Positions 35,948-55,756 of a stretch of DNA of 64,000 nucleotides are shown piece by piece. Within the stretch, counting starts at the first letter, position 1, and every line of letters starts with the position of its first letter. The position numbers and the translations under genes were made by a program. Under the pieces are notes generated by a model. That model did no database searches and was not told where the DNA came from. It was given only the letters and a program-made list of their open reading frames with translations. The stretch lies in NCBI RefSeq assembly GCF_054482525.1, contig NZ_CM137006.1; one strand, 5' to 3'.

Positions 35948-36046
35948 GCCGGATGCGGCTAAAACGCCTTATCCGGCCTACAAATTCTACCAAATTCAAT
36001 ATATTGCAGAAATCATGTAGGCCTGATAAGCGTAGCGCATCAGGCA
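35948..36046. repeat. BIME: two REP palindromic units in inverse orientation between ysaA and avtA
   Basis: gccggatgcggctaaaacgccttatccggcctaca and tgtaggcctgataagcgtagcgcatcaggca are typical E. coli REP sequences. Confidence 0.75.
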
Positions 36047-52532: not shown

Positions 52533-54602
52533 ATGTCTGAGAAAACTTTTCTGGTGGAAATCGGCACTGAAGAGCTGCCACCAAAAGCACTGCGCAGCCT
52601 GGCTGAGTCCTTTGCTGCGAACTTTACTGCGGAGCTGGATAACGCTGGCCTCGCATACGGCACCGTTCAATGGTTTGCTGCTCCGCGTCGTCTGGCGCTG
52701 AAAGTAGCTAACCTGGCGGAAGCGCAACCGGATCGTGAAATCGAAAAACGCGGCCCGGCGATTGCTCAGGCGTTCGACGCTGAAGGCAAACCGAGCAAAG
52801 CGGCAGAAGGTTGGGCGCGTGGTTGCGGTATTACCGTAGACCAAGCTGAGCGTCTGACTACCGATAAAGGCGAATGGCTGCTGTATCGCGCCCACGTGAA
52901 GGGCGAAAGCACCGAAGCTCTGCTGCCGAATATGGTTGCGACTTCGCTGGCGAAACTGCCGATCCCGAAACTGATGCGTTGGGGTGCAAGCGACGTGCAC
53001 TTCGTGCGTCCGGTGCACACCGTGACTCTGTTGCTGGGCGACAAAGTTATTCCGGCTACCATTCTGGGCATTCAGTCCGATCGCGTAATTCGCGGCCATC
53101 GCTTTATGGGCGAGCCGGAATTCACTATCGACAATGCCGATCAGTATCCGGAAATTCTGCGTGAGCGCGGGAAAGTCATCGCCGATTACGAAGAACGTAA
53201 GGCGAAGATTAAAGCCGATGCCGAAGAAGCGGCGCGTAAGATTGGCGGTAACGCTGACTTAAGCGAAAGCCTGCTGGAAGAAGTGGCTTCGCTGGTGGAG
53301 TGGCCGGTCGTTCTGACCGCGAAATTTGAAGAGAAATTCCTCGCTGTGCCGTCTGAAGCGCTGGTTTACACCATGAAAGGTGACCAGAAGTACTTCCCGG
53401 TGTACGCGAACGACGGCAAACTGCTGCCGAACTTTATCTTCGTTGCCAACATCGAATCGAAAGATCCGCAGCAAATTATCTCTGGTAACGAGAAAGTCGT
53501 TCGTCCACGTCTGGCGGATGCCGAGTTCTTCTTCAACACCGACCGTAAAAAACGTCTGGAAGATAATCTGCCGCGTCTGCAAACCGTGCTGTTCCAGCAA
53601 CAGCTTGGCACACTGCGTGACAAAACTGACCGCATCCAGGCACTGGCTGGCTGGATTGCTGAACAGATTGGCGCTGACGTTAACCACGCAACCCGTGCGG
53701 GCCTGCTGTCCAAGTGCGATCTGATGACCAACATGGTCTTCGAGTTCACCGACACCCAGGGCGTTATGGGGATGCACTACGCGCGTCACGATGGCGAAGC
53801 GGAAGATGTTGCCGTGGCGCTGAACGAGCAGTATCAGCCGCGCTTTGCCGGTGATGACCTGCCGTCTAATCCGGTAGCCTGTGCGCTGGCGATTGCTGAC
53901 AAGATGGATACTCTGGCGGGTATCTTCGGTATCGGTCAGCATCCGAAAGGCGACAAAGACCCGTTTGCGTTGCGTCGTGCCGCACTTGGCGTGCTGCGTA
54001 TTATCGTTGAGAAGAACCTCAACCTTGATCTGCAAACGCTGACCGAAGAAGCGGTGCGTCTGTATGGCGATAAGCTGACTAATGCCAACGTGGTTGATGA
54101 TGTTATCGACTTTATGCTCGGTCGCTTCCGCGCCTGGTATCAGGACGAAGGTTACACCGTTGACACCATCCAGGCGGTACTGGCGCGTCGTCCGACTCGT
54201 CCGGCTGATTTCGATGCCCGAATGAAAGCGGTATCGCACTTCCGTACCCTGGATGCAGCTGCAGCACTGGCGGCGGCGAACAAGCGTGTATCTAACATTC
54301 TGGCGAAATCTGACGAAGTGCTGAGCGACCGCGTGAATGCCTCTACTCTGAAAGAGCCGGAAGAAATTAAACTGGCGATGCAGGTTGTGGTGCTACGTGA
54401 CAAGCTAGAGCCGTACTTTGCTGAAGGTCGTTACCAGGATGCGCTGGTCGAACTGGCTGAGCTGCGTGAACCGGTTGATGCCTTCTTCGATAAAGTGATG
54501 GTCATGGTTGATGACAAAGAATTGCGTATCAACCGTTTGACCATGCTGGAGAAACTGCGCGAATTATTCCTGCGCGTTGCGGATATTTCGCTGTTACAGT
54601 AA
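52533..54602 (+). CDS. glyS: Glycine--tRNA ligase beta subunit
   Basis: 689-aa ORF 9 bp after glyQ; [20 protein letters not shown]... Confidence 0.96.
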
Positions 54603-54616
54603 TAACGCCGTTATTA

Positions 54617-54647
54617 AAAAGCCTGCCATCTGGCAGGCTTTTTTTAT
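54617..54647 (+). terminator. Rho-independent terminator after glyS
   Basis: Stem agcctgcca / tggcaggct with 2-nt loop followed by ttttttt. Confidence 0.75.
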
Positions 54648-54864
54648 CGCTAAATAATACAGCAACCTTTAATAATCTTCTGATGAATAAAGATTATCTC
54701 ATATATTAATTTTATGAGATTTTTTTAGGATTATATCAAGGAGAAGAAACGAACTTATTAAGCTAGAATAGCCACGGGTGCTTGAGACTGTTTGTCTCAG
54801 GTATTCACCGAAAGGCAGACAGAGAAAAGCCCCACCTGACTATAAATCAAAGTGAGGCCCCTCT

Positions 54865-55077
54865 ATGCATAGACACCATAAGGTTAGCCTCTTACTCGTT
54901 GGAAATCAACATAGGGGGCTGGGAATGCCGCAGAAATATAGATTACTTTCTTTAATAGTGATTTGTTTCACGCTTTTATTTTTCACCTGGATGATAAGAG
55001 ATTCACTGTGTGAATTGCATATTAAACAGGAGAGTTATGAGCTGGCGGCGTTTTTAGCCTGCAAATTGAAAGAGTAA
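54865..55077 (+). CDS. mokA: Mok-type reading frame overlapping hokA (same frame, upstream start)
   Basis: ATG at 54865 preceded by GTGAGG; 70-codon frame ending at the hokA stop, as recalled for mok/hok pairs. Confidence 0.45.
   Translation: MHRHHKVSLLLVGNQHRGLGMPQKYRLLSLIVICFTLLFFTWMIRDSLCELHIKQESYELAAFLACKLKE
54925..55077 (+). CDS. hokA: Hok-family type I toxin (small membrane peptide)
   Basis: Translation MPQKYRLLSLIVICFTLLFFTWMIRDSLCELHIKQESYELAAFLACKLKE, the Hok/Gef family signature. Confidence 0.8.
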   Translation: MPQKYRLLSLIVICFTLLFFTWMIRDSLCELHIKQESYELAAFLACKLKE

Positions 55078-55200
55078 GCGTCTTCGGCGGGAAATTATTC
55101 CCGCCTTTCTTACGGTGTTGCGCATTCTCATTGCACCCAAATTTATTCTTCACAAAAATAACACTAGATTCTATTACGCGATCGATTATTTATTTCCTGA

Positions 55201-55236
55201 AAAAAAATAAAAAAATCCCCGCCAAATGGCAGGGAT
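55201..55236 (-). terminator. Rho-independent terminator after cspA
   Basis: On minus strand: stem tccctgcc / ggcgggga (one mismatch) followed by a long T-run (complement of aaaaaaataaaaaaa). Confidence 0.65.
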
Positions 55237-55263
55237 CTTAGATTCTGTGCTTTTAAGCAGAGA

Positions 55264-55476
55264 TTACAGGCTGGTTACGTTACCAGCTGCCGGGCCTTTA
55301 GCGCCGCTTTCGATGGTGAAGGACACTTTCTGACCTTCGTCCAGAGATTTGTAACCATCGTTCTGGATAGCAGAGAAGTGTACGAACACGTCTTTAGAGC
55401 CATCGTCAGGAGTGATGAAGCCGAAGCCTTTGTCAGCGTTGAACCATTTTACGATACCAGTCATTTTACCGGACAT
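55264..55476 (-). CDS. cspA: Major cold-shock protein
   Basis: 70-aa [41 protein letters not shown]..., exact CspA sequence as recalled; its long 5' UTR lies upstream at about 55477..55640. Confidence 0.96.
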
Positions 55477-55756
55477 AGTGTATTACCTTTAATAATTAAG
55501 TGTGCCTTTCGGCGATATGGCGTGCTTTACAGATTTTGAAGCGTTAAAGGAATGTGCACTACGAGGGGTATCAACGATAACTCTTGAAGGGACTTGCCTT
55601 ACTACACTGCTTTAATGGTCTGTACGTCAAACCGTTGATGTGCATTAAGCCACGCATTGGCGGGTGATGCAACAATTATTTTTCATATTTATGATTAATC
55701 GGTTGGAAAACGGTCCTGTCATCAGGACCGTAAACAGCAATAAAGTGGATAAAAGT

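Follow-up and report, generated by a model that had tools for sequence, protein, structure and literature searches.

The segment 54764–55138 of the DNA analysed here, a 64,000-nucleotide stretch of contig NZ_CM137006.1 (assembly GCF_054482525.1; hereafter the window), is very probably a wild-type, IS-free hokA/mokA/sokA type I toxin–antitoxin locus, with an RNA logic that, as judged from sequence comparison and modelled folds, would resemble that of plasmid R1. Intactness of the locus at the sequence level is supported. Its role as a functional killer is unproven, and killing in vivo under laboratory conditions appears doubtful by analogy, given that the E. coli C allele was negative in published tests. 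The uninterrupted hokA locus as such is already known, having been described and tested in 1999.

The reading frames of the locus, and the neighbouring genes glyS and cspA, are placed as follows:

52533–54602: glyS, with its stop at 54602
54620..54646, plus strand: glyS intrinsic terminator, AGCCTGCC-ATCT-GGCAGGCT followed by T7, read directly from the sequence
54852..54857, plus strand: mokA Shine-Dalgarno sequence (SD), GTGAGG, 7 nt upstream of the ATG at 54865
54865..55077, plus strand: mokA, 70 amino acids, taken from the list of open reading frames; an in-frame 20-codon N-terminal extension of hokA
54925..55077, plus strand: hokA, 50 amino acids, its ATG 60 nt downstream of the mokA ATG and in the same frame; contains Cys29 and Cys46
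55054..55125, minus strand: ysaE-like small open reading frame, 23 amino acids, antisense to the hokA 3′ end
55264–55476, minus strand: cspA, convergent to the hokA locus
55209–55636: cspA thermoregulator, an Rfam match

The glyS terminator forms the upstream boundary of the hokA module, with an AT-rich spacer between them; Rfam gives only sub-threshold, terminator-like matches in this region. The interval between glyS and mokA (54603–54864) is 262 bp long and IS-free, and positions 54400–55300 match IS-free genomes as a single collinear piece of 901 bp, whereas K-12 matches in two pieces around IS150. The chromosome of E. coli PCN033 is identical to the window (100%), and hokA is annotated there. 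An earlier note on this DNA, made from the letters alone, had described the glyS–mokA interval as lacking an IS and the mokA (ATG 54865, GTGAGG) and hokA frames as intact, and both observations are borne out. The span that it gave for the locus, 54603–55077, does contain both frames but is too short at its 3′ side, as the locus reaches at least 55138, the end of the element fbi (see below).

The toxin encoded in the window is identical to K-12 HokA. It matches the Pfam family HOK_GEF (PF01848) with an E-value of 1.4e-21, and the NCBIfam HokA equivalog NF007290 with 129.7 bits (cutoff 89). The mokA remnant of K-12 is annotated as a pseudogene. The core of the mokA SD, GAGGC, is also kept in the R1-type locus and in hokC, and by analogy with the R1 model, from which the coupling is taken, hok is predicted to be translated through the overlapping mok frame, which has its own SD. 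The small open reading frame on the opposite strand is annotated as a hypothetical protein in PCN033 and as ysaE (b4793) in K-12, and has no NCBIfam match; it is a neighbour, not known to belong to the toxin–antitoxin module.

I placed the RNA elements by alignment to the R1-type hok/sok locus of an IncF plasmid. This alignment covers the −10 box, tac, ucb, the mok SD, the sok −10 and −35 boxes, the post-stop hairpin and fbi. A generic sigma-70 promoter and terminator scan called neither the hokA nor the sokA promoter, and both were therefore placed via the R1-type alignment; the sole promoter call of that scan overlaps the glyS terminator and was disregarded. The elements of the hokA mRNA are listed here:

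54764..54769, plus strand: putative −10 box of the hokA mRNA promoter, TAGAAT, which aligns with TATGAT of the R1-type hok promoter
54776..55138, plus strand: hokA (mokA-hokA) mRNA in its minimal full-length form, the 5′ end placed by homology
54776..54787, plus strand: tac, the mRNA 5′ end, with predicted pairing to fbi or ucb
54776..54806, plus strand: metastable 5′ hairpin of the nascent transcript, core GAGAC/GUCUC
54827..54835, plus strand: ucb, AAGCCCCAC, within the GGCAGA...AGCCCC block of the R1-type alignment
54887..54891, plus strand: dcb, GCCUC, in the third helix of the Rfam model
55086..55105, plus strand: GC-rich hairpin directly after the hokA stop, a terminator-like call that aligns with R1-type GGCGGGCGCAGGCCCGCC
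55126..55138, plus strand: fbi, UCUCAUUGCACCC, with 11 predicted base pairs to the mRNA 5′ end

The −10 box lies 7 nt upstream of the putative +1, in a region that is AT-rich further upstream but has no good −35 box; of eight E. coli alleles, seven conserve it, as do two further species of Escherichia. The mRNA 5′ end, GGGTGCTTGAG at 54776, corresponds to GGCGCTTGAGG in the R1-type locus. A full-length match to the Rfam covariance model RF01794 ('sok'; 54776–54927, plus strand, 120.2 bits against a gathering score of 59) begins exactly at this nucleotide and ends at the hokA AUG. I considered this match as a delimiter of the antisense RNA, and rejected it: lying on the plus strand, it covers the leader of the hok mRNA as far as the hokA AUG, and so supports the leader structure without locating SokA. 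The elements vary little or not at all among the eight E. coli alleles, E. coli C, E. albertii and Escherichia sp. E1V33.

At the 3′ side, the hairpin at 55086–55105 corresponds to the terminal stem that, in R1, protects the truncated hok mRNA (PMC9841398). Directly 3′ of fbi, a GC-rich terminal hairpin of the R1 kind was not found. Further on, the first structure that resembles a terminator is the cspA hairpin (55212–55239), in the opposite sense, and the hokA mRNA possibly ends at the bidirectional cspA terminator near 55240. In strain E09, sequence conservation stops about 15 nt past fbi.

The folding model described for R1 hok/sok (PMC9841398) served as the reference for the predicted RNA structures. 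The first 27 to 51 nt of the transcript are predicted to fold as a hairpin of 9 to 13 bp, with energies of −12.5 to −20.0 kcal/mol, and the R1-type sequence has an equivalent repeat, GAGGC/GCCUC; the leader fold as a whole has a z-score of −3.05. In the full-length RNA, with a 3′ end past 55138, the thermodynamic prediction pairs tac (54776–54787) with fbi (55126–55138) at a probability of ∼1.0, and ucb (54829–54835) with the mokA SD (54852–54858) at a probability of ∼0.99. One of the tac–fbi pairs is compensatory with respect to the R1-type locus, being U-A here and C-G there. When the RNA is cut in silico at 55110–55111, directly 3′ of the GC-rich hairpin, the minimum-energy fold has tac paired with ucb and the SD paired with dcb, at ensemble probabilities of only ∼0.5 and ∼0.3; the tac partner in this 3′-truncated RNA is 54827–54833 (∼0.5). 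The hokA SD/AUG is paired with 55049–55062 in both predicted states. Modelled in this way, the full-length RNA takes a closed form as in the R1 model, and the minimum-energy fold of the truncated RNA has the stems of its open form.

On the minus strand, the alignment places the antisense RNA and its promoter:

∼54874 to 54819, minus strand: predicted SokA antisense RNA, ∼56 nt
54881..54909, minus strand: putative sokA promoter, with −35 TTGATT (54909–54904), a 17-nt spacer and −10 TAACCT (54886–54881)

The SokA 5′ end (G at 54874) was set from promoter spacing, ∼7 nt downstream of the −10 box, and its 3′ end from K-12 sokA, the remnant of which (b4614, 35 nt) maps to 54819–54853 on the minus strand and corresponds to the SokA 3′ half. 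In the predicted RNA, one long hairpin follows a single-stranded 5′ tail, and the 3′ end is rich in U. The RNA folds at −24.7 kcal/mol with a z-score of −4.99, and none of 200 shuffled sequences folds as well. It is complementary to the mokA SD, the AUG and codons 2–4. The natural target length of E. coli C hokA, given as 52 bp in PMC3562002, is consistent with a SokA of ∼56 nt. The promoter aligns column for column with the R1-type sok promoter, TTGCGC-17-TATCCT, and the highly conserved block CAnAAGGTTAGCCTCTTAC reads as the sokA promoter on the minus strand. Its −10 box matches the consensus at three of six positions, and both boxes are invariant across all Escherichia alleles examined. The earlier note had anticipated a Sok-type RNA on the minus strand at roughly 54800..54880, close to the interval delimited here, and the check that it proposed, an alignment with characterised hok/sok loci, has now, together with the predicted folds, placed the sok promoter and all the hok mRNA elements.

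Taken with the R1 model, these elements suggest how the locus would operate. A weak promoter would give a stable mRNA starting at about 54776, the nascent 5′ end of which would be held in the metastable hairpin. Once the RNA is full-length, tac would pair with fbi and ucb would hide the mokA SD, permitting neither translation nor antisense binding. Slow trimming of the 3′ end back to the hairpin at 55086–55105 would then allow tac to pair with ucb, exposing the mokA SD/AUG in a target hairpin. The ∼56-nt SokA would pair with the mokA initiation region, blocking translation of mokA, and hence of hokA, and leading to cleavage of the duplex; were SokA lost, the 50-amino-acid membrane toxin HokA would be made. 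In this scheme I infer the transcription starts, the mRNA 3′ end, the 3′ processing and the expression.

Whether such a locus would kill has a published history. According to later papers, Pedersen & Gerdes (1999, Mol Microbiol 32:1090) described five hok loci in K-12, inactivated by IS elements and other lesions, and the earlier note's statement that these loci are considered inactivated agrees with the way the literature treats them. The same study described hokA of E. coli C and hokC of ECOR24, both IS-free, again as reported in later papers, and later summaries state that these showed no post-segregational killing and no rifampicin activation, and that their mRNAs were poorly translated, in the case of hokA in vitro. 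The locus in the window could thus be complete but cryptic, a silent relic that is transcribed, but with translation of mokA and hokA too inefficient for killing when SokA is lost. I consider the chances of this to be about even. Apart from the negative results reported for hokA and hokC, the former from an allele 98% identical to the window, it is consistent with the pairing of the hokA SD/AUG with 55049–55062 in both predicted states, and with the apparent tolerance of inactivation, 48% of genomes being disrupted by IS150 and Escherichia sp. E1V33 carrying a frameshift. However, different Escherichia species have kept all the RNA elements, long-range pairings among them, pointing to purifying selection on regulation. 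K-12 HokA, to which the toxin here is identical, is moreover toxic on overexpression and already encodes both cysteines (bioRxiv 10.1101/2025.08.07.668861), and what was found for E. coli C may not hold for the window, as that allele differs by E36G and K47N and by a different Sok/mok haplotype. The suggestion of the earlier note that the locus may be functional is thus upheld as far as the intact sequence and the model-like folds go, but has to be set against the E. coli C allele, for which neither killing nor rifampicin activation was seen according to the later reports.

The state of the locus in K-12 is clearly different. In MG1655, an IS150 of 1,443 bp is annotated between the mokA pseudogene remnant and the 35-nt sokA remnant. 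The K-12 flanks match window positions 54400–54853 and 54893–55300, so that 54854–54892 (39 bp) are missing, and with them most of the mokA SD, its ATG, nine codons, the sokA −10 box and the SokA 5′ half. The earlier note had placed an IS150 copy between glyS and hokA in K-12; the element is indeed at the locus, but within mokA/sokA, and 54854–54892 have been lost as well. In the window the insertion site is empty:

54850..54854, no strand assigned: empty IS150 site, AAGTG, intact and without the TGTACT footprint

The window accordingly does not fit the IS150-disrupted (K-12-type) class, with or without the 39-bp deletion.

Counts over 5,426 complete E. coli genomes place the window in the larger of two classes. 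Positions 54400–55300 are found as one collinear piece in 2,831 genomes, and a 131-bp core is covered to at least 80% in 2,800; the K-12-type IS150 junction is found in 1,643, and IS150 at that position but turned the other way, without the deletion, in ∼900–1,130, a class whose junctions were read in L004, L005 and L018. The locus is thus uninterrupted in ∼52% of complete E. coli genomes and occupied by IS150 in ∼48%. The earlier note had singled out the uninterrupted state, which is true of the window but not special to it, being shared by about half of the genomes. The IS-free state is the majority state and is also found in Escherichia sp. E1V33; the E. albertii type-strain sequence examined ends or diverges just upstream of hokA. 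Most simply, the IS-free state is ancestral, and K-12 represents an atypical state of the hokA locus. A scan of species-representative genomes for exact 22-mers, which is blind to more diverged homologues, found the locus in Escherichia only, at three loci.

I read the IS150 junctions of K-12, BL21, L004, L005 and L018. The K-12-type junction combines one IS150 orientation with the 39-bp deletion. The L018-type junction reads AAAG/IS/AAGTGAGG, with a 3-bp duplication of AAG, and the L004-type junction reads AAAGTG/IS/AAGTGAGG; the latter may have arisen from the L018 type by TG slippage. An apparent IS150 footprint, AAAGTG-TGTACT-GCCCC, which destroys the mokA SD, is present in the O145 strain RM9873. 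This is the only genome examined with a true footprint, and none was found among 60 sampled rows; an O145:NM match resembles the footprint allele in its score. Partial junction matches ('1..62 nt') had initially pointed to widespread footprints, a reading that was rejected, as they reflect the other junction class, detected through the similar IS150 terminal repeats.

The disrupted alleles bear on a further possibility, namely that the module is fully active and has a chromosomal role, such as stress- or phage-triggered arrest, persistence or protection against addiction to plasmid hok, with the IS150 disruptions reflecting selection against its activity. The complete set of elements, the model-like predicted folds and the toxic peptide are all in line with this, as are the recurrent, independent IS150 insertions at the mok SD and sok hairpin in hokA and hokC, and also in sokE (PMC11551753). 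A target-site hot spot without selection explains the recurrent insertions equally well, however, and no phenotype has been reported for IS-free hokA, which makes an active role of this kind rather unlikely.

The insertions themselves form a pattern across several hok paralogues, in which IS150 repeatedly occupies one short stretch of a few base pairs, immediately upstream of the mok SD. The hokA locus is hit in both IS150 orientations, with at least two and perhaps three junction types, together accounting for ∼48% of E. coli genomes. In strain F11, IS150 occupies exactly the homologous position in hokC (CAACC/IS/ACCCGAGGCC), where the duplication likewise ends one nucleotide before GAGGCCCC, and sokE::IS150 has been reported in more than 400 isolates (PMC11551753). 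The putative hot spot lies one nucleotide upstream of the mok SD core, as N3-N-GAGGCCCC, within the sok terminator hairpin. By eye, the hokA target shows only a weak resemblance to the IS150 inverted repeats (TGAGGCCCC compared with TGACCCC). Recurrent insertion at the same site suggests a target hot spot for IS150; no relevant account of such a hot spot in hok loci turned up when the literature was searched.

A second kind of variation concerns the segment where SokA and the mokA initiation region overlap. The patch 54859–54873 exists as two haplotypes, of which that of the window, GCCCCTCTATGCATAGAC, is found by sampling in ∼20% of complete genomes, including O157:H7. It is derived with respect to the form common to E. 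coli C, E. albertii and Escherichia sp. E1V33, and lacks the CUGA (YUNR-type) motif in the predicted target loop. Franch et al., in 1999, reportedly found that a YUNR-type motif speeds Sok binding. Speculatively, the derived haplotype may retune the specificity or the kinetics of the antisense interaction. The same six substitutions, which set the patch apart from the haplotype of the other three and remove CUGA from the target loop, could also be read as a subtle inactivation of SokA recognition or mokA initiation, for which the weak promoters would be a second possible cause. This I regard as very unlikely: a SokA encoded in cis keeps its complementarity automatically, the SD, AUG, spacing and target hairpin are all retained, the promoter boxes are the same as in every other allele, and a haplotype present in ∼20% of complete E. 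coli, O157:H7 among them, is too common for a private lesion. A wild-type, sequence-intact hokA/mokA/sokA locus is still the reading that I prefer for the window.

Considered together, the IS150 hot spot shared by hok paralogues and the derived SokA haplotype might indicate recurrent, lineage-specific selection, acting to switch these loci on and off or to alter their specificity, as opposed to inert relics; I put this forward tentatively, as a possibility that is less likely than not. The recurrent targeting by IS150 and the two SokA-recognition haplotypes are modest leads for the study of IS target choice or of how type I toxin–antitoxin systems evolve. The practical value of the present analysis lies in annotation, with mokA, SokA (minus strand, ∼54874–54819) and fbi to be added beside the 50-amino-acid open reading frame.

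Three known systems serve for comparison. The first is the K-12 remnant (b4455, b4647, b4614), which encodes the same HokA as the window and has flanks that are 97–98% identical; there, IS150 parts the hokA promoter and leader from the open reading frame, whereas the window is uninterrupted. The second is the hokA locus of E. coli C. It shares with the window its position between glyS and cspA and the 322-bp spacing from glyS to hokA, and is 98% identical over 660 bp, with identical promoters, tac, ucb, SD, dcb and fbi. The differences are the six substitutions within the 15-bp patch 54859–54873 (SokA 5′ region and mokA initiation), two HokA residues (E36 and K47 in the window, G36 and N47 in E. 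coli C), and a few changes in the 3′-UTR, including a 1-nt indel just upstream of fbi.

The third system is the hok/mok/sok (parB) locus of R1 and R1-type IncF plasmids, which brings about post-segregational killing, an activity that IS-free hokA reportedly lacks. Nucleotide similarity between the two is confined to short conserved blocks, and the R1-type leader has an extra 18-nt segment. Unlike R1, the hokA locus is chromosomal, has mokA in frame with hokA, and lacks the GC-rich terminal hairpin after fbi. The architecture and the order of elements are nevertheless the same, and the likeness extends to the Hok/Gef toxin, the RF01794 leader, the position of the sok promoter, the post-stop hairpin and the tac–fbi pairing of the mRNA ends.

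Four features of the window, among them an Rfam match across the hok mRNA leader and a short frame antisense to hokA, are listed here:

54776-54927, plus strand: match to Rfam RF01794, named 'sok antitoxin', on the sense strand
55054-55125, minus strand: 23-aa ORF, antisense to the 3' end of hokA and the hairpin that follows its stop codon
55209-55636, minus strand: cspA thermoregulator, full-length match (501 bits)
35982-36024, plus strand: match to Rfam ES036 (CssrF), an sRNA, barely above the gathering score (38.9 against 37.6 bits)

What RF01794 matches is the leader of the hok mRNA, between +1 and the hokA AUG, and not the antisense RNA of ∼56 nt. Annotation pipelines relying on this family will assign 'sok' to the incorrect strand, and its extent will be wrong as well. 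For the 23-aa frame, the K-12 annotation gives ysaE (b4793) and that of PCN033 a hypothetical protein; no family match was found. The gene adjoining the thermoregulator is named cspE by RefSeq in PCN033 and many other genomes; it lies at the cspA locus, and its protein accession is the one called CspA in other genomes. In strain E09, an insert of ∼390 bp in all, with a gene annotated as yidD-like, separates hokA from cspA. It begins ∼15 nt 3' of the fold-back inhibitory element (fbi), after the position equivalent to 55153, and shows where the conserved hokA module ends downstream.

Within the module, the alignments show six substitutions in only 15 bp (54859-54873), against ∼2% divergence elsewhere, and this cluster falls in the region of the SokA 5' end and mokA initiation. 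The window haplotype, GCCCCTCTATGCATAGAC, is carried by roughly 20% of E. coli genomes, O157:H7 included, and its predicted target loop has lost the CUGA motif. It is the derived form, since the alternative haplotype, GCTACCCTATGCCTGAAC, is present in E. coli C, E. albertii and Escherichia sp. E1V33.

Some of the compared alleles, those of strain M22546, Escherichia sp. E1V33 and E. albertii, look degenerate. In M22546, the -10 reads TGGAAT, a 1-nt deletion 5' of the hokA ATG puts mokA out of frame, and the fbi carries a G-to-A change, while in E1V33 a 1-nt insertion early in hokA causes a frameshift. In E. albertii, the sequence of the contig ends or diverges a short way 5' of the hokA SD, where another IS may lie. 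The allele of E. coli O145 RM9873 is IS-free, but AAAGTG-TGTACT-GCCCC replaces AAAGTGAGGCCCC at the position equivalent to 54852-54858, destroying the mokA SD. The TGTACT-bearing stretch looks like a remnant of an IS150 terminal repeat. A hokA locus that appears uninterrupted is therefore not always pristine.

The few base pairs immediately 5' of the mok SD are a recurrent target of IS150, and the same site (54850-54854) is empty in the window. Among 5,426 complete E. coli genomes, 1,643 possess the K-12-type junction, with the element in one orientation and a 39-bp deletion, and ∼900-1,130 carry IS150 at hokA in the opposite orientation, with junctions AAAG|IS|AAGTGAGG or AAAGTG|IS|AAGTGAGG. 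In the hokC locus of strain F11, IS150 lies at exactly the homologous position (CAACC|IS|ACCCGAGGCC), and sokE::IS150 has been reported in more than 400 isolates (PMC11551753). These recurrent insertions, at hokA, at the F11 hokC and at sokE, suggest an IS150 target hot spot common to hok paralogues.
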